Below, in pieces: positions 10,596-17,387 of a DNA stretch of 64,000 nt. Location of the stretch: assembly GCA_041687035.1 (NCBI GenBank), contig JAWLCS010000010.1:17624-81623 (forward strand), given 5' to 3'. Source of the DNA: Bacteroidales bacterium (lineage in GTDB: Bacteria; Bacteroidota; Bacteroidia; Bacteroidales; UBA7960). A model generated the notes under the pieces. That model was not told the origin of the DNA. It made no database searches and saw only the letters and a list, made by a program, of their open reading frames with translations. The first letter of the stretch is position 1; each line of letters starts with the position of its first letter. Position numbers and translations under genes: made by a program.

Positions 10596-10781
10596 ATGCA
10601 GAAAAAACTTACAAAAGGAAGTGACAGGATGCTTGCCGGCGTTTGCAGCGGTATTGCAGAATATTTTGATATGGATCCCACACTGATACGGATTCTTTTC
10701 GTGCTGTTTGCCCTTTTTGCTGGTTCCGGCATTTTGTTATACATCATACTGGCCATTATAGTACCCTCCAAAGGGTATTAA
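10596..10781 (+). CDS. PspC domain-containing small membrane protein
   Basis: 61 aa. RMLAGVCSGIAEYFDMDPTLIRILFV is the PspC-domain signature, followed by one TM helix. Confidence 0.7.
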   Translation: MQKKLTKGSDRMLAGVCSGIAEYFDMDPTLIRILFVLFALFAGSGILLYIILAIIVPSKGY

Positions 10782-10784
10782 GCC

Positions 10785-11270
10785 ATGGCCGAAGGCTTGC
10801 TCATAGCCCTGGGCATAATGCTGTTGGCGGCAGGCGCCCTGGGTGCCTTTGTTCCGGTTTTGCCCGGACCTCCGCTGAGTTTTGTCGGCATGCTGCTTAT
10901 TCACCTCACACCCGGGTATTCTTTTTCGATCAGTCTATTAATTACCTTCGGCATTTTAGCGGCCATCATAACCATCCTCGATTTTGTGCTCCCTGTTTAC
11001 GGTACCAGAAAAATCGGCGGCAGCAAGCGAGGCATGTATGGTGCGGCCATCGGACTGGTGGTGGGCATATTTTTCTTTCCCCCTGCCGGGGTAATTGTCG
11101 GTCCGTTTGTGGGGGCACTTATTGCAGAACTTTCAAACAACAAAGATTTAGGCCCGGCTACCAAGGCAGCTTTCGGAAGCTTGATGGGCCTGCTAGCCGG
11201 TGCACTGCTTAAGTTTGCTTACTCTTTTGCCGTTATTTGGGTTGCCTTGCGCTTGTTAATTTTCAGATAA
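10785..11270 (+). CDS. DUF456-like membrane protein
   Basis: 161 aa with 4 TM helices. VLPGPPLSF near the N-terminus resembles DUF456. Family call is by memory. Confidence 0.55.
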   Translation: MAEGLLIALGIMLLAAGALGAFVPVLPGPPLSFVGMLLIHLTPGYSFSISLLITFGILAAIITILDFVLPVYGTRKIGGSKRGMYGAAIGLVVGIFFFPPAGVIVGPFVGALIAELSNNKDLGPATKAAFGSLMGLLAGALLKFAYSFAVIWVALRLLIFR

Positions 11271-11296: not shown

Positions 11297-11304
11297 TAAA
11301 TTTG
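11297..11304 (+). promoter_or_regulatory. Bacteroidota -7 promoter box (TAnnTTTG)
   Basis: TAAATTTG lies 38 nt upstream of ATG 11342, in a 70-nt AT-rich gap. Confidence 0.4.
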
Positions 11305-11341
11305 CATAAATCAAAATATCTAACTGTTTGATGATTATTCA

Positions 11342-11974
11342 ATGAGTGACTTTCCTAAAGCCATAGCCAAGCGTTACGATGGACTCTCGAAGCAGAGCTG
11401 CTGCTTGTCCTGCGGGGGAGCATTTTCCCTGGCAAGCATCGAGCCCGGCTTTGTTTGTGTTGACCTTGGATGCGGCAAAGGCCACGATGTATTGCGAATG
11501 GCCACCATGGCAGGCGAAAAAGGCTTTGCCTACGGAGTAGATATTTCTGATGGCATGATTGAAACCGCCACAAAAAATGCGGCCATAATGCGGGCTGAAA
11601 ACGTACGTTTTATTAAGTCCCCCCTGGAAAATATTGATCTTGAAAGCGATGCAGCCGATGTGGTAATTTCTAACTGCACCATAAATCACTCCCTCGATCA
11701 GGCGCGGGTATGGCAGGAAATTTCACGCATTCTCAAAAGCGGCGGACATTTTGTAGTGAGTGACATTTATGCTATGGAGGAGGTTCCCGAAGTTTTCCGC
11801 AACGATCCGGTTGCCGTATCAGAATGCTGGGCAGGAGCCGTAACAAAAGAACAATACCTCAGCCACATAAAAGCAGCGGGGCTTTTTGAGGTTTCCATCA
11901 TGGAAGAATCGGCACCTTATGAAAAAGGATCAATACACGTTGCCAGTTTTACCGTAAAAGGCATTAAACCATAA
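11342..11974 (+). CDS. class I SAM-dependent methyltransferase, arsenite methyltransferase (ArsM)-like
   Basis: 210 aa with the DLGCGKG SAM motif. SCCLSCGG (C20, C21, C24), VVISNCTINHS (C112) and ECWAGAVTKEQY (C162) line up with conserved ArsM segments (GCGNP, ISNCVINL, GCxAGA) as I recall them. Confidence 0.7.
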   Translation: MSDFPKAIAKRYDGLSKQSCCLSCGGAFSLASIEPGFVCVDLGCGKGHDVLRMATMAGEKGFAYGVDISDGMIETATKNAAIMRAENVRFIKSPLENIDLESDAADVVISNCTINHSLDQARVWQEISRILKSGGHFVVSDIYAMEEVPEVFRNDPVAVSECWAGAVTKEQYLSHIKAAGLFEVSIMEESAPYEKGSIHVASFTVKGIKP

Positions 11975-11988
11975 CAAAACATATTGTC

Positions 11989-12096
11989 ATGAAAAGTTTT
12001 ATCAAAAAAGAGAAAAAAGAAAAAGTTCAGGAAAAAGTGAAGCAGGCCCAGTGCTGTGCAAAAACATCATCGAGCCCGGCCGGCTGCCACGACTAA
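11989..12096 (+). CDS. 35-aa Cys-rich peptide, candidate precursor or substrate peptide (absent from the ORF track)
   Basis: Own translation of ATG 11989 to TAA 12094..12096: MKSFIKKEKKEKVQEKVKQAQCCAKTSSSPAGCHD. Sits 15 nt after the methyltransferase stop and 48 nt before the rSAM start. A hairpin with T-run follows it. Confidence 0.5.
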   Translation: MKSFIKKEKKEKVQEKVKQAQCCAKTSSSPAGCHD

Positions 12097-12108
12097 AAAA
12101 ACACCAAA

Positions 12109-12132
12109 GGCCCGTAAAGCGGGCCTTTTTTT
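12109..12132 (+). terminator. hairpin plus T-run (terminator or attenuator) between the peptide ORF and the rSAM gene
   Basis: GGCCCGtaaagCGGGCCttttttt: a perfect 6-bp GC stem, 5-nt loop and T7 run. It lies 13 nt after the peptide stop and 13 nt before ATG 12145. Confidence 0.55.
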
Positions 12133-12144
12133 CAGGCAAAAACC

Positions 12145-13449
12145 ATGCAATCCTCGCGTTTCAATATTGTTTCGAGGCTAAATAGCAGCCACGAGTATTT
12201 TGTGGTCAACCTGCTTTCGGGCCAGGCCGATCTGCTCAGCCCAGCCGAGGCGGCTTTTCTCGAAAGAGACTTTGAAAAAGCGCCAGCCGAATTTTTCGAA
12301 AAAGGATACCTGGTTGACCCGGTACAAGAAATGCTTCAGTACCGCCTCAGGTATATCGATTTTATTGAAAAACGCGATCAGGAAGAGGTTCAGGTTTTCT
12401 TTGTGCCGACTTACCAGTGCAACTTCGACTGCAGTTATTGCTACCAAAGCGAGTACCCCGCTCCGCCCGAAAGCCTCTCGCCCGAGATAGTTGATGCTTT
12501 TTTTTCTTTCCTGGAAACCCGGCTGCAGGGCCGCAAAAAATACATTACCCTGTTTGGGGGTGAGCCTTTCCTTGGTGGGAAAAGTTACAAAGCATCTCTC
12601 GAATATTTCTTTGATCGCTGTGCCGAGAACAAAATTGAGCTAGCTGTTGTAACCAACGGATACCACCTCGACGAATATTTCGATTTGCTTTCAAAGGTGA
12701 GCATTCGCGAAATCCAGGTTACCCTCGACGGGCCAGAGCAGCTGCACGACCGCCGCAGGCCCCGCAAAGGCGGGCTGCCTTCCTTTAAAAAGATTGTTGA
12801 AAATATTGACCAGTGTCTTGCGCTGGGCTACACCGTAAACCTGCGTGCGGTAGTCGACCGTGAAAATATGGCTGAGTTGCCTGACCTGGCCCGTTTTGCC
12901 ATCGAAAAGGGCTGGACGGGTCATCCCAACTTCAAAACCCAGCTGGGGCGAAACTACGAACTGCACTATTGCCAGAACGCCCGCAGCAGGCTTTACAGCC
13001 GCGTGGAGCTTTACCACGAACTGTATGGGCTCATCAAACAACACCCGGAGATTCTTGAATTTCACAAACCGGCCTTTTCTGTCGCAAAATTCCTAAGCGA
13101 AAACGGCAGCCTGCCCGATCCCCTCTTCGACTCCTGCCCTGCCTGTAAAAGCGAATGGGCACTCGACTACAGCGGCAGGGTGTATTCTTGCACGGCCACC
13201 GTGGGTAAGCCAGGCGAAGAGTTGGGCACCTTTTTTCCCGAAATGAAACTCAACGAAACGGCCATAAGCGCCTGGCAGGAGCGCGACACCCTGCACATCG
13301 AAAAATGTGCGGAATGCAGCTTGCAACTGGCATGCGGGGGTGGTTGCGGCTCGGTGGCCAAAAACCAGCACGGGCATTTGCTTTCGCCCGACTGCCGGCC
13401 AGTAAAAGAACTTCTGGAAATGGGGCTAGACCTTTACTTCAGCGAATAA
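12145..13449 (+). CDS. radical SAM enzyme with C-terminal SPASM domain (peptide-maturase architecture)
   Basis: 434 aa. CNFDCSYC (C92/C96/C99, Cx3Cx2C) is at about nt 12418..12441. The SPASM signature is CPACKSEWALDYSGRVYSC (Gx4C), then CAECSLQLACGGGC (Cx2Cx5Cx3C), then a later Cys (SPDC), at about nt 13135..13395. An extension of about 88 aa precedes the rSAM core. Confidence 0.85.
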   Translation: MQSSRFNIVSRLNSSHEYFVVNLLSGQADLLSPAEAAFLERDFEKAPAEFFEKGYLVDPVQEMLQYRLRYIDFIEKRDQEEVQVFFVPTYQCNFDCSYCYQSEYPAPPESLSPEIVDAFFSFLETRLQGRKKYITLFGGEPFLGGKSYKASLEYFFDRCAENKIELAVVTNGYHLDEYFDLLSKVSIREIQVTLDGPEQLHDRRRPRKGGLPSFKKIVENIDQCLALGYTVNLRAVVDRENMAELPDLARFAIEKGWTGHPNFKTQLGRNYELHYCQNARSRLYSRVELYHELYGLIKQHPEILEFHKPAFSVAKFLSENGSLPDPLFDSCPACKSEWALDYSGRVYSCTATVGKPGEELGTFFPEMKLNETAISAWQERDTLHIEKCAECSLQLACGGGCGSVAKNQHGHLLSPDCRPVKELLEMGLDLYFSE

Positions 13450-13541
13450 GCAGTATTGCCATCCGATTTTTCTTCAACATTTGCTCTGAAGGTTGTATTT
13501 TTGCGCCTCGATTTCTCATTGAAATACAATAACATAACGCC

Positions 13542-15080
13542 ATGGAATTTATTAACGACCATTTTGCCAGCGTGCATATCCTCAACCAGTTCTGGCTTAC
13601 TTTTCTTATGGTTATAAGCATGGTGCTGGTTTCGCGCACGTTTGTGGCCGGCACCCGCTATTCGCCCATCCTGATCATTGTGGTCTTTGGTCTGCTAATG
13701 GGCTTTATCCTGGTCAACACCGGACTGGCCTCGCCCGGCCTGCCGGAGTTTCCCATTGTGGAACTGGGAAGCCGCGTTACCATCACTGCCCTTATGGCAT
13801 CATTCTTTGTGGGAGGGCAGGAGATACGCAAGCTCATTACCAACCAAAAAATTGATCCCGAAGATATTGTGGTTCCTTCTTCCGAAGAAATATTCCTTGG
13901 CACCAAAGCCACCCAGTTTATGTTTCTGGTTAGGGCGTTCTTTATCCTGATTGGCATTGAATCGCTGAAGCGGGTTATTGTGAGTCATGACTCGGGCGAC
14001 GCCCTCGACCATTTTTATCCCCTGCTGGGGTACCTGGGGCTGGTAGCTTCCATTATCCTGATCGACCACCGCGCCAAGATATCAAACAAGGCGGTTTATA
14101 TCCGCAAGGGCATTTTCGAAACGGCCATAATACTTTTGTTACTGGTGGTTTCTTATTACATTGCACAGTGGATCAAACCCCTGATTGCCCTGCCCGAGAT
14201 CTTTTTCGCCATGATCCTTTCGGTTAGTCTGGGTATGATACTGGTTCACTGGAAATTTGGACCCACTATACGCTCCCTGCTTTTTGCGGGGATTCCGGTG
14301 GTGTTGGCAGCCAATTTTATGGTGGGAGGCTCGCGCATTGCCGATGCTTTTCAGCTTGGAGGCATGACCTCTGTACTTTCGTTTGGCTTTTTCGGTCAGT
14401 TATTCTGGATGTTTGGCGGTTTGGCTATTCTCATTCTTATTGGCAAGGCCAACCACATTCGTAACCTGGCACCCGGTATGGCAGGATCCCTTTCGCACTC
14501 AGGCCTTACGGGTGCCTGTACCGCCGGCGACCTTGGCCCCGAAGCCGCAGTCCGTGCACCCATCATGATCAACATTCCTTTTATCGGCCACATATTCGTC
14601 TTCTCAATCCTGGCAGCCAGCGCTACGGCCGGCAGGTTGCTCGTACCTTACGCCCTGATAGTAGTTGTGGTAGGGATGGCATTGACCTGGCTGGCCCTAA
14701 AAACCCTGCGCACCGCCAACGGAAGCGATAAAATTGAAATCCGTGGCCTCATGCTCTTTTCGCTGGGATGGCAGCTGGTAGCCGTATTTGGTGGACTGCT
14801 CATTTTGAGTATCTCGGGCATGAGCCTTGGCGATGCCGTTATGGCCAACGCATCTGCCATCTCGCACTTCGGTCTGTTTGCGGCCATACAGGGAGGCATG
14901 TTTGGAACGCAAGCCGCCGGCCTCATTGCATTTGTTTTTGCCATGCCCTTTTTGGTGCACCCATTGGTGTTTGGCATTTTTGGCAAAACCGCTGAGAACA
15001 ATGGCGTTATGCCAGAAAAAATCGTATACGCCCTGGCCCTGATAGGCGTTGGGGGCGTGCTCTACTCCATGATTTTTTAA
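13542..15080 (+). CDS. polytopic membrane protein, putative transporter (family not recognised)
   Basis: 512 aa with about 12-14 hydrophobic helices throughout. A TATTTTTG -7 box is at 13496..13503. No diagnostic motif recognised. Confidence 0.55.
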   Translation: MEFINDHFASVHILNQFWLTFLMVISMVLVSRTFVAGTRYSPILIIVVFGLLMGFILVNTGLASPGLPEFPIVELGSRVTITALMASFFVGGQEIRKLITNQKIDPEDIVVPSSEEIFLGTKATQFMFLVRAFFILIGIESLKRVIVSHDSGDALDHFYPLLGYLGLVASIILIDHRAKISNKAVYIRKGIFETAIILLLLVVSYYIAQWIKPLIALPEIFFAMILSVSLGMILVHWKFGPTIRSLLFAGIPVVLAANFMVGGSRIADAFQLGGMTSVLSFGFFGQLFWMFGGLAILILIGKANHIRNLAPGMAGSLSHSGLTGACTAGDLGPEAAVRAPIMINIPFIGHIFVFSILAASATAGRLLVPYALIVVVVGMALTWLALKTLRTANGSDKIEIRGLMLFSLGWQLVAVFGGLLILSISGMSLGDAVMANASAISHFGLFAAIQGGMFGTQAAGLIAFVFAMPFLVHPLVFGIFGKTAENNGVMPEKIVYALALIGVGGVLYSMIF

Positions 15081-15129
15081 GGAGTTTTCAACAACGCGTT
15101 TGTTCATAACAAAAAGATATATCTTTGCC

Positions 15130-15310
15130 GCTGGTTTTGGTTCCGGAACCCAACAGGGTTTAACGGATGAAAAGGGAATCAGGTGTAAATCCTGAACAGT
15201 TCCCGCTGCTGTGAGCTCTTTCATATTGTTTGCCAATCTTGGCCACTGTCCCGCACGCGAGGGATGGGAAGGCGGCAAACAAGGAGTAAGTCAGAAGACC
15301 TGCCATACCA
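15130..15310 (+). promoter_or_regulatory. cobalamin (B12) riboswitch
   Basis: Conserved core elements are visible: GGTTCCGG, AAAAGGGAATCAGGTGTAAATCCTGAACAGTTCCCGCTGCTGT, GCCACTG, GGGAAGGCG and the B12 box AGTCAGAAGACCTGCC. A TATCTTTG -7 box is at 15120..15127. It lies upstream of a TonB-dependent receptor. Confidence 0.85.
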
Positions 15311-15458
15311 TTTGTATTTGTAGCTTTCGGGAAAAAAAGCGAAGAAAAACTGATGCATCAATTTTTCTCCAACTGGTTTCGCCGTTTGTTGCAAATAATT
15401 TTAAAAAATTATTTGTTAACATTTTCCGGTCTTTGGCCGGAAGCAAAACTATCACATC

Positions 15459-17387
15459 ATGCACAAATCACTCATTGGCTTACTGACTTTTGTCTTGTTA
15501 TTTTCTTTTTCCGCTTTCGCGGAAGCACCCGACACCCTGATCACGCTGTCGGAAGTTTCGATAAGTGCACGCCGGCAGCACGACTTCGGCGCCGGCCACA
15601 GCTCCTCCACCATCGACAGTACTATTCTTCAGCAGCAATCGCAACAGCATCTGGGCTACCTGCTAGGGCGACATTCGGGCATATTCATTAAAAGCTACGG
15701 GCCCGGAATACTGGCTTCTAATAGCCTGCGCGGCGGCCAGCCCGGACAAACGGCATTGATGTGGAATGGCTTCAGCCTGCAAAGCCCCATGAACGGACAG
15801 GCTGACCTGGCGCTGATGCCCGTATTGTTTGCCGACGAGATACAAGTTCAATATGGTGGTGGCAGCGCCCTGTGGGGCAGCGGCGCCATGGGCGGAGCCA
15901 TTTTCATAAACAACCACCGCAGCCGCCAGCTTGGCTTTTCCGCAGAAGCGGGAATAAACACGGCCAGCATTGGCGACCTTGGCCAAAGCCTGAAGCTAAG
16001 CTACGGATTGCAAAACTTTTCGACTACGTTGCGTTTTTTCAACCGCAACGCCAGCAATAAATACCGCTTTGCCAACACTACCCTTCCCGGCAACCCCGTG
16101 GAGGAACAACTTCTGGCTGGCATTTCGCAAACGGGCATTTTGCATGAAACCTGGTTCAGGCTGGGAAACAACCACCAGTTCGACCTGCGCTGGTGGTGGC
16201 AGGACAACGACCGCGACATACCTCCGGCCCTTGATTTTACCTTTTATGAATCCCGACAAAAAGATCAGAGCCTTCGCCTGAGCGGGCAGTGGCAAATGAG
16301 CCTGCCCAGGGTGCTGTTCTTCGTCAGGGGTGCCCGCTTTGAAGATTATCTGGATTATTCCGACAATTTCGATTATGTTGGAAACAGCTACTCTACCACC
16401 CTTACCGGCGAAGCCGAGGCACGCTGGAATCCCCGCAAGGGAATTATTTTTAACGGTGGAATAAACTTACAGGACATTACCGCCAAAGCCGACGAATACG
16501 ATCAGGAGGAGGGCCGCTTTAGCCTTGCCCTGTTTGCTTCGGCCAAGTGGGAGGCCATTGAAGAATCGCTCGAGTTGGTGGTGAGCGGTCGGCAGGAGTT
16601 GGTAAAAGACTATGAGATCCCCTTTGCGCCTGCCATGGGCTTTTCGTGGAAGGTGGCCCCCCAGTGGGCCGTAAAAGGCAATGCCGGCTACAGCTATCTG
16701 CTGCCTTCGCTCAACGCCCTTTTCTGGAACCCCGGCGGCAACCCCGATCTGAAACCTGAACAGGGCTGGAGTGGCGATCTGAGGCTGGAACGCAAACTGT
16801 CGAATGGTAAAAACGACAAAAGCTTCAGCCCTTTTCAGGATGTTAGCATAGGAGGCTATCATCGCAACATCAAAAACTGGATTATCTGGTTGCCCCAAGA
16901 GGACTCGTGGATATGGATGCCCGAAAATCGGGCAGAGGTGCGCAGCTATGGCATCGAAAGTCGCCTGGGCGGCCACTGGCAGCAAGGGCACAACCGCCTG
17001 CAATGGGGTGTGCGCTACGACCATACCATTGCCCGAAACACTAAAGCCGCGGTGGCCGAAGACCCTTCGCTCGACAAGCAGCTGATATACGTGCCCCGCA
17101 ACAGGGTTGGGATGAATCTGGCCTTTATTCATAAAAACCTAAGCCTGACCTACGACCACGAGATCAACGGAAAGCGTTTTACCAACAGTGACAACAGCGA
17201 GTCGCTGCCAGCTTACCACTCGGGCGATGCAGGCCTGCACTGGCACAGGAAGTTTGCTAATTATGGCCTGGGGTTAAATTTAAAAGTAGAGAATATATGG
17301 AACACCCGCTACCAAATCATTGCCAACCGGCCCATGCCGCTGCGCTTTGTGAGGGCAGGCATAAGTTTTTCCTTTCATCAAAAGTAG
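15459..17387 (+). CDS. TonB-dependent receptor, BtuB-like (inferred corrinoid transporter)
   Basis: 642 aa with a signal peptide, a TonB-box-like DTLITLSEVSISA and a plug domain (IKSYGPG...SLRGG), then a long beta-barrel. The corrinoid role is inferred only from the upstream riboswitch. Confidence 0.8.
   Translation: MHKSLIGLLTFVLLFSFSAFAEAPDTLITLSEVSISARRQHDFGAGHSSSTIDSTILQQQSQQHLGYLLGRHSGIFIKSYGPGILASNSLRGGQPGQTALMWNGFSLQSPMNGQADLALMPVLFADEIQVQYGGGSALWGSGAMGGAIFINNHRSRQLGFSAEAGINTASIGDLGQSLKLSYGLQNFSTTLRFFNRNASNKYRFANTTLPGNPVEEQLLAGISQTGILHETWFRLGNNHQFDLRWWWQDNDRDIPPALDFTFYESRQKDQSLRLSGQWQMSLPRVLFFVRGARFEDYLDYSDNFDYVGNSYSTTLTGEAEARWNPRKGIIFNGGINLQDITAKADEYDQEEGRFSLALFASAKWEAIEESLELVVSGRQELVKDYEIPFAPAMGFSWKVAPQWAVKGNAGYSYLLPSLNALFWNPGGNPDLKPEQGWSGDLRLERKLSNGKNDKSFSPFQDVSIGGYHRNIKNWIIWLPQEDSWIWMPENRAEVRSYGIESRLGGHWQQGHNRLQWGVRYDHTIARNTKAAVAEDPSLDKQLIYVPRNRVGMNLAFIHKNLSLTYDHEINGKRFTNSDNSESLPAYHSGDAGLHWHRKFANYGLGLNLKVENIWNTRYQIIANRPMPLRFVRAGISFSFHQK

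Follow-up and report, generated by a model that had tools for sequence, protein, structure and literature searches.

A stretch of 64,000 nucleotides (nt) from a Bacteroidales bacterium (contig JAWLCS010000010.1, positions 17,624 to 81,623 of the forward strand; hereafter called the window) contains the minimal three-gene form of a cassette that is present in at least about 590 mostly anaerobic species. The three genes encode an S-adenosylmethionine (SAM) dependent methyltransferase related to the arsenite methyltransferase ArsM, a cysteine-rich peptide of 35 amino acids (aa) and a radical SAM enzyme of the SPASM type (rSAM). Judged from sequence comparisons, the cassette appears to work like a radical SAM/SPASM system for a ribosomally synthesized and post-translationally modified peptide (RiPP), as known for CteB/SCIFF, PapB and QhpD, and it lies outside every named family tested. 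The reading that we favor, with a probability of roughly 0.45, is a RiPP-like system whose product, a modified thiol peptide, stays in the cell and acts together with an ArsM-type methyltransferase and with thioredoxin. An earlier note on this DNA had claimed five elements, namely the methyltransferase, a small open reading frame (ORF), a hairpin, the rSAM and a membrane protein, and all of them are present where it had placed them. The features are as follows.

11297-11304, + strand: Bacteroidota-type -7 box TAAATTTG, 37 nt before the methyltransferase start, a putative promoter element
11342-11974, + strand: ArsM-like class I SAM methyltransferase, 210 aa (NCBIfam PRK11873, Pfam Methyltransf_31)
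11989-12096, + strand: peptide gene, 35 aa plus stop (ATG at 11989, stop codon 12094-12096)
11989-12045, + strand: basic leader MKSFIKKEKKEKVQEKVKQ, part of the peptide gene
12046-12093, + strand: conserved core of 16 residues AQCCAKTSSSPAGCHD, part of the peptide gene
12106-12132, + strand: GC-rich hairpin and U-run, listed by the terminator scan (10-bp stem and 3-nt loop at 12106-12128)
12145-13449, + strand: radical SAM/SPASM enzyme, 434 aa (Pfam Radical_SAM, cysteine pattern, fold predicted by AlphaFold2, AF2)
12145-12399, + strand: N-terminal beta3-alpha3 domain resembling a RiPP recognition element (RRE), about residues 1-85 (AF2 model)
12418-12441, + strand: CX3CX2C motif with C92, C96 and C99 (CNFDCSYC)
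13135-13395, + strand: SPASM cysteine region, C331-C417 (cysteine pattern)
13542-15080, + strand: polytopic membrane protein, 512 aa, strongly hydrophobic, with roughly 11-13 predicted transmembrane segments

Comparison of the sequences shows that the 35-aa ORF, which encodes MKSFIKKEKKEKVQEKVKQAQCCAKTSSSPAGCHD, is a real protein-coding gene. An ORF of 35 codons could conceivably arise by chance if it stood alone; chance is ruled out here because the ORF is kept in other genomes. We searched for relatives of the rSAM with one genome per species, which resulted in at least 592 species possessing such a relative, and kept the 80 best-scoring of these loci for the locus counts. They originate from Bacteroidales, Prolixibacteraceae, Spirochaetales/Leptospirales, Ignavibacteriales, one metagenome-assembled genome (MAG) of the Syntrophomonadaceae and one MAG of the Marinamargulisbacteria. 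An ORF of 27-48 codons, ending in AQCCAK-x6-GCHD-stop and in a few copies starting with GTG, is located between the methyltransferase gene and the rSAM gene in 79 of these 80 loci. Among 78 distinct nucleotide versions of the core, ten positions (A, Q, C, C, A, K, G, C, H and D) show not a single amino-acid change. At the same time synonymous variation is free, with all four codons of Ala and Gly and both codons of Cys, Gln, Lys, His and Asp in use, and all three stop codons are found after the core. Since the invariant residues tolerate synonymous codon changes only, the peptide sequence must be under strong purifying selection. The earlier note had proposed a peptide-modification system, and in support of it the small ORF is conserved jointly with the radical SAM/SPASM enzyme and the ArsM-like methyltransferase across phyla. 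That note had also given the sequence and the ATG start of the ORF correctly, but the gap from the methyltransferase stop is 14 nt and not 15.

The 175 distinct peptides share a common layout, in which the N-terminus (MKSL[IV]KK) and the 16-residue core are kept, whereas the linker between them is variable and basic. The leader has a median charge of +5. Three cysteines are invariant, spaced as CC-x9-C, and the core ends in C-H-D. In loci outside the Bacteroidota (Spirochaetes, Ignavibacteria and Margulisbacteria), a Shine-Dalgarno sequence AAGGAG(G) is situated 5-9 nt before the peptide start. The earlier statement that the peptide belongs to no named precursor family agrees with our searches: Pfam and NCBIfam contain no matching model, for NCBIfam even at E ≤ 10 with three variants of the peptide. 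A phmmer search with the 35-aa peptide against 1.84 billion representative sequences returned 3 matches only, the query being too short to be informative, and an exact-sequence look-up revealed deposited peptides that are labeled only as 'hypothetical protein'. In at least one related genome the peptide gene was skipped by the gene callers. The sole peptide-less locus of the 80 (L048, 4000-7650, from an Ignavibacteriales MAG) has kept the rSAM and the fusion of thioredoxin (Trx) and thioredoxin reductase (TrxR) described below; neither methyltransferase nor peptide was found within 5 kb upstream, where a gene resembling the major facilitator superfamily is located instead.

Linkage was also examined from the side of the peptide. 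For this purpose metagenome contigs were scanned with a degenerate DNA pattern for the core, which gave at least 120 loci; all metagenome denominators refer to loci with sufficient flanking sequence among the matches listed. The methyltransferase is located upstream of the rSAM in 76 of the 80 genome loci; seen from the peptide, it was upstream in 97 of 108 metagenome loci. The rSAM follows downstream of the peptide in 81 of 100 metagenome loci, and in 5 more it is found on the other strand or upstream. Methyltransferase and rSAM also co-vary in their identity to the proteins of the window (r = 0.77). Altogether, the cassette occurs in Bacteroidota, Spirochaetota, Ignavibacteria, the Syntrophomonadaceae MAG, the Marinamargulisbacteria MAG and a clade of high GC content.

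The -7 box that had been noticed upstream of the methyltransferase is indeed there. Of 70 related loci, 53 have a box of the form TAnnTTTG within 150 nt upstream of the methyltransferase gene; in the two closest relatives this box is at -44/-45. The loci without it belong mainly to Spirochaetes, Ignavibacteria, Firmicutes and Margulisbacteria, as expected for a promoter element of the Bacteroidota. In terms of its sequence, the box probably marks the start of the transcription unit. A scan for the sigma-70 consensus performed no better than shuffled sequences.

The hairpin with a T-run after the small ORF, another element of the earlier description, has a folding energy of -16.3 kcal/mol (z = -3.1), and none of 200 shuffled sequences was as stable. 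Located between the peptide and rSAM genes, it looks like an intrinsic terminator, an attenuator or an mRNA-stabilizing element. A simple rule for terminators (at most -8 kcal/mol plus a T-run) identifies 18 of the 80 related loci, and by eye a stable stem can be recognized in many more of those with spacers of at least about 45 nt. The stem is absent from loci with spacers of 4-40 nt, so that the hairpin is frequent, but not obligatory. Known RNAs were not detected within the cassette by Rfam.

The combination of Cys codons in a short ORF with a terminator-like hairpin behind it, as found in the window and many relatives, could also indicate a regulatory leader peptide, the translation of which would control rSAM expression by cysteine-sensing attenuation. 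We consider this very improbable and rejected it. Invariance of Ala, Gln, Lys, Gly, His and Asp beside Cys, combined with a free choice of synonymous codons, is not needed for attenuation, and the core contains ten invariant residues of six kinds. Moreover, the hairpin is lacking where the spacer is short, and in some metagenome loci the peptide gene directly precedes Trx/TrxR or DUF302 genes.

The rSAM has a clear match to the Pfam family Radical_SAM (PF04055, 76.6 bits vs a threshold of 29.5, E = 3e-21). Its C-terminal cysteines are arranged as C331-x2-C334-x9-G344-x4-C349 ... C388-x2-C391-x5-C397-x3-C401 ... C417. This is an exact fit to the SPASM pattern CX9-15GX4C ... CX2CX5CX3C ... C, in which seven Cys ligate two auxiliary clusters, and the cysteines of the CX3CX2C motif as well as the eight further cysteines are invariant in the 18 rSAM homologues that were compared. 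The complete SPASM signature announced in the earlier note is therefore real, and the full-length alignments to SPASM-family models of NCBIfam span this C-terminal region.

The resemblance to peptide maturases, also part of the earlier proposal, is borne out by profile as well as by fold. The best NCBIfam match is CefB (NF038107, 148 bits vs 600), with residues 1-433 aligned to positions 1-432 of the 444 of the profile. It is followed by TIGR04463, a family of radical SAM enzymes adjoining Cys-rich peptides (127 bits vs 525), and by PapB (NF047865, 111 bits vs 340). Lower scores were obtained for the SCIFF maturase (TIGR03974, 69 bits vs 425), QhpD (62 bits vs 453) and the mycofactocin protein MftC (57 bits vs 265), and the geopeptide, Clo7bot and DynA models match below their cut-offs, too. 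The 25 top matches are mostly SPASM peptide maturases and include no arsenic-related radical SAM enzyme. By these profile scores, the rSAM reaches the cut-off of no named family. The AF2 model (predicted local distance difference test, pLDDT, 78) begins with a beta-beta-beta-alpha-alpha-alpha domain, which extends over residues 1-79. Its best match among solved folds is CteB (5wgg, E = 4e-16, 473 aligned columns, TM score 0.65), followed by SuiB, anSME, TigE and ChlB. CteB and SuiB bear RREs, and the model is consistent with an RRE in the N-terminus of the rSAM.

CteB, the maturase of the SCIFF peptide CteA (PDB 5WGG), is the closest solved structure both by sequence and by predicted fold. The two systems have in common an N-terminal beta3-alpha3 domain, a radical SAM barrel and a SPASM domain that binds two auxiliary clusters (predicted in our case), and a short Cys-rich precursor encoded beside the enzyme. 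They differ in that the enzymes share 18% identity, that the peptide described here has three Cys instead of the six-Cys SCIFF pattern, and that SCIFF systems are devoid of an ArsM-like methyltransferase and of Trx-TrxR partners. CefB and the TIGR04463 enzymes, the top profile matches, are likewise maturases paired with Cys-rich peptides; however, their cut-offs are missed and our peptide does not show the repeat with a Cys at every fifth position. To our knowledge, the chemistry of both families is uncharacterized. In the QhpD/QhpC and PapB/freyrasin systems, a radical SAM/SPASM enzyme forms Cys-to-Asp/Glu thioethers, in which the sulfur of the Cys is joined to a carbon of the acidic side chain. 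This is of interest with regard to the Cys-His-Asp end of the core, although neither a CX3D repeat nor an amine dehydrogenase context exists here. Taken on these sequence relationships, the peptide is probably the substrate of the rSAM. That the reaction is a thioether formation is suggested by analogy to the nearest relatives and can be put forward tentatively at best. A sulfatase maturase was considered and rejected, with a score of 77.5 bits vs 349 for TIGR03942 and no sulfatase among the recurrent neighbors; the core (CCAKx) is also lacking the Arg of the sulfatase signature C/S-x-P/A-x-R.

The methyltransferase turned out to be ArsM-like with some reservation. The layout described in the earlier note is right insofar as the ligand cysteines are kept, but the cut-off of the ArsM family is missed: the best NCBIfam match is the arsenite methyltransferase PRK11873 (NF008823) with 168 bits vs a cut-off of 263, and an orthologue from Ignavibacteria reaches 188 bits. 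Pfam identifies the protein as Methyltransf_31 (E = 1e-31). The closest solved relative is CmArsM (PDB 4FS8/4KW7, E = 1e-23). Over 70 orthologues, the invariant cysteines are C20, C21 and C24 (CCLSCGG), C39, C112 (SNC) and C162 (ECWAG), of which C24, C112 and C162 align with the arsenite-ligand cysteines C72, C174 and C224 of CmArsM. The 210-aa protein begins at position 62 of the 272 profile positions, and hence the first approximately 60 positions as well as the C-terminal domain of ArsM are absent. The invariant CC pair sits 3-4 residues before C24, and from its position it might be a stand-in for C44 of CmArsM, which would lie in the part that is missing. Unlike the ArsM and AS3MT enzymes, the methyltransferase is encoded outside an ars operon. 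The NCBIfam models for ArsMs of the arsenosugar and arsinothricin type give 63-85 bits vs cut-offs of 240-500. In IMG/JGI many members of this family are labeled 'arsenite methyltransferase' and others 'UbiE', and NCBI uses the name 'methyltransferase domain-containing protein'. In some loci other methyltransferase-like ORFs are found beside the peptide (L103:8501-10079 and L082:5193-5792). By sequence appearance only, these are TsaA/TrmO-like and an approximately 199-aa class I methyltransferase starting with MSEFDSRARQWDKD; L103 also possesses a DUF1847-like gene and no rSAM within 5 kb.

Since the ArsM ligand cysteines are invariant and are accompanied by the CC pair, a thiophilic substrate of the methyltransferase is to be expected. 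ArsM receives its As(III) in the form of a tri-thiol conjugate, by three thiol transfers, and relies on thioredoxin for the reduction of its catalytic disulfides (PMC6138428). A peptide with three invariant Cys and a linked Trx-TrxR fit such a tri-thiol donor and such a reductant, so that the combination of these partners is suggestive. That a metalloid is the physiological substrate is nevertheless doubtful on the sequence evidence.

The same features would also be compatible with a metalloid-methylation machine in which the peptide is not modified at all. It would bind As(III) or a similar metalloid with its three cysteines and pass it to the ArsM-like enzyme in place of As(GS)3, Trx-TrxR would reset the enzyme and the rSAM would act elsewhere, for example on the metalloid, as do ArsS and ArsL, or on the methyltransferase. 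ArsM-type methyltransferases are paired with radical SAM enzymes in the biosynthesis of arsenosugars (ArsS-ArsM) and of arsinothricin (ArsL-ArsM), and in ArsD and ArsR, triads of a CC pair plus a further C recur as binding sites for As(III). Apart from the conserved arsenic-ligand cysteines and the preference of ArsM for a tri-thiol donor and thioredoxin (PMC6138428), one could point to the fact that, among the matches listed, the peptide is accompanied slightly more often by the methyltransferase (90%) than by the rSAM (81-86%). However, the rSAM resembles peptide maturases with an RRE-like domain and not ArsS or ArsL, the known ArsS-ArsM and ArsL-ArsM pairs comprise no peptide, a recurrent context of ArsR, ArsC or Acr3 is lacking, and the methyltransferase not only stays below the ArsM cut-off but is also devoid of the N-terminal 60 residues and the C-terminal domain. 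We therefore regard this machine as quite unlikely.

The usual fourth member of the cassette, linked to it in most lineages except that of the window, is a Trx-TrxR fusion of approximately 422 aa, which is encoded directly 3' of the rSAM gene in 54 of the 80 genome loci and carries the redox motifs CPPC in the Trx part (52 of 54) and CATC in the TrxR part (54 of 54). On the peptide side, a thioredoxin reductase is present in 45 of 50 metagenome loci. All 54 fusions (L017-L080 and L081, for example L080:6436-7704) have HQF(D/A/E)xxxAN at the position of HRRxxxR in E. coli TrxR. The latter is the motif for the 2'-phosphate of NADPH, and to judge from the exchange, the fusions may use a donor other than NADPH. 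Further recurrent accessories linked in the operons are an exported Trx-like protein, often located between methyltransferase and peptide, and DUF6132, a small Cys-containing membrane protein, as well as DUF302, DUF1847, YgaP-like transmembrane proteins, rhodanese, OsmC and regulators of the MarR/HxlR type. The recurrent neighbors are thus genes of thiol and sulfur redox metabolism. In the window itself, tblastn revealed no DUF1847, DUF302 or DUF6132 homologues elsewhere in the 64 kb.

Within the high-GC clade (L177, L169, L156, L193, L196 and L109; GC 0.65-0.72), for which ORF calling is approximate, the order is methyltransferase, peptide, Trx and TrxR, the latter two being separate genes, and the rSAM is located on the opposite strand. 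Some of the high-GC loci have no adjacent ArsM-like methyltransferase. The leader of this clade contains a second CC pair (..KKACCAPEK..AQCCAKASRLVSGCHD), and a leader CC pair was gained independently in L076. In the window, the cassette is directly preceded by genes for a 61-aa protein with a PspC domain and a 161-aa membrane protein of the DUF456 family (10596-11270, + strand). DUF456 is found upstream in 8 related loci, which is probably a matter of clade synteny and not of functional linkage.

Most obvious from the gene content alone would be a classical secreted RiPP, in which the rSAM forms thioether or sactionine-type rings, the methyltransferase tailors the product, the leader is removed and the peptide is exported as an antibiotic or signal. 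Precursor, radical SAM/SPASM enzyme and methyltransferase constitute the appropriate gene grammar, the nearest enzyme relatives make ranthipeptides or sactipeptides, and a hairpin behind the precursor gene, as in the window and its relatives, is common in RiPP operons. Nevertheless, we think that such a product is unlikely. In approximately 200 loci we found no recurrent exporter, transporter, protease or leader peptidase, the core stays the same from phylum to phylum, in contrast to precursors of competitive antibiotics, and the neighbors are cytoplasmic thiol-redox genes.

The membrane protein, which the earlier note had counted as part of the system, does not fill this gap. Its adjacency to the rSAM is limited to the three closest relatives (L001, L002 and L151), and the next relatives, with 63% rSAM identity, already lack it. 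Pfam and NCBIfam yield no match for the 512-aa protein. It belongs to a separate family, far more conserved than the cassette, in which identities of 77-100% span upwards of 120 sequence clusters, those of Balneolales and Alkalitalea saponilacus among them. In a Balneolales genome and in that of A. saponilacus, the family member is found in unrelated neighborhoods. A role of the protein as exporter was accordingly rejected on synteny. Many named sources of this family apparently are saline or alkaline habitats. Further downstream, a full-length cobalamin riboswitch (15121-15321, + strand; Rfam RF00174 with 108 bits) precedes a TonB-dependent receptor (15459-17387). Of the NCBIfam models, that of the B12 receptor family fits this receptor best, although its cut-off is not reached; the whole is an ordinary arrangement for B12 uptake.

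The lack of an exporter is shared with mycofactocin (MftA/MftB/MftC) and pyrroloquinoline quinone (PQQ; PqqA/PqqD/PqqE), where C-terminal residues of a short precursor are modified by a radical SAM/SPASM enzyme and the product has an intracellular redox role. By analogy, the cassette could give rise to a small diffusible redox cofactor, if the rSAM crosslinked C-terminal residues, housekeeping peptidases released the product and the methyltransferase tailored it. The short precursor with its conserved core at the extreme C-terminus, the radical SAM/SPASM enzyme, the lack of a recurrent exporter and the redox gene context are in line with this idea. The likeness is one of logic only, though. 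The two known systems have their RRE as a protein of its own and conserve peptidases and additional enzymes, and the residues modified in them are Tyr/Val or Glu/Tyr and not Cys. In the loci described here there are neither a conserved peptidase and further tailoring enzymes nor recurrent client dehydrogenases nearby, and the MftC score is far below its cut-off. A cofactor of this kind is therefore rather improbable.

Redox partners, the absence of an exporter or protease and the invariant core together lead us to prefer an intracellular carrier or cofactor over a classical secreted, diversifying RiPP, and the product of the cassette is probably not a secreted antibiotic. Invariance of the core across phyla is typical of cofactor precursors like those of PQQ and mycofactocin, and not of diversifying antibiotics. 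In the reading that we favor, the radical SAM/SPASM enzyme would recognize the leader via its N-terminal RRE-like domain and perform radical chemistry on the core, most probably a cysteine-centered crosslink, for instance a thioether as in the nearest relatives. The methyltransferase would then methylate a thiophilic atom, which could be one of the peptide sulfurs or could belong to a metalloid or sulfur species bound to the peptide thiols. Where present, Trx-TrxR would re-reduce the disulfides formed in the cycle. The product would stay inside the cell and might serve as a thiol-based carrier or cofactor under metalloid or reactive-sulfur stress.

Several points weigh against this interpretation. 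The putative modification of the peptide is deduced from linkage and conservation, and if all three cysteines were converted to thioethers, the idea of a thiol carrier would fail. Among the matches listed with enough sequence, 14-19% of the peptide loci have no nearby rSAM, and the peptide may function without it. Trx-TrxR is absent from the clade of the window and from the window itself, as judged by tblastn of the 64 kb. Genes of ars operons (ArsR, ArsC and Acr3) are not recurrent, the sole exception being a sub-threshold ACR3-like gene in L079, and the link to arsenic comes from the methyltransferase alone. With respect to the rSAM, the Pfam model SPASM (PF13186) did not match, not even when the last 128 residues were searched by themselves at E ≤ 10, the Pfam model of PqqD did not match the isolated N-terminal part, and a profile of the N-terminal domain against the PDB sequences revealed neither an RRE nor any other meaningful hit. 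The assignment as RRE is derived from the predicted topology and the full-length fold match to CteB alone. Finally, the counts were drawn from MAG and metagenome contigs and from a best-scoring subset, which introduces a bias towards closer relatives.

A bolder extension, which we consider unlikely, would be a ribosomal peptide as the scaffold for metalloid chemistry, with the CC-x9-C motif holding As(III), Sb, Se or Te. The ArsM-like enzyme would methylate the atom while it is on the peptide, the radical SAM/SPASM enzyme would either pre-organize the S3 site by a crosslink or form a carbon-metalloid or carbon-sulfur bond, and a dedicated thioredoxin system, apparently not NADPH-dependent, would reset the cycle.

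The earlier note had called the system undescribed, and we came to the same result: neither the core motif nor the combination of ArsM, SPASM enzyme and peptide is described in any paper that we found in the searchable literature, and we found no model in Pfam or NCBIfam for the peptide or the system as a whole. The cassette represents a large unnamed peptide/rSAM family with an unusual set of partners and should be a tractable target for the enzymology of radical SAM proteins. Its 16-residue core is conserved throughout, which as a rule points to a cofactor or carrier whose partner is fixed. As the key component is small enough to be missed by gene callers, it also exposes a gap in genome annotation. 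Members of this methyltransferase family are probably counted when arsM is surveyed in anoxic sediments and soils. If the enzyme depends on the peptide or has a substrate other than arsenite, the estimates of arsenic-methylating potential in anaerobic communities would need revision. Should the peptide really be a scaffold, there would exist a peptide-dependent route to methylated arsenicals and organo-arsenicals in anaerobes without glutathione, which could explain why 'arsM' genes from anoxic habitats are poor predictors of arsenic methylation.

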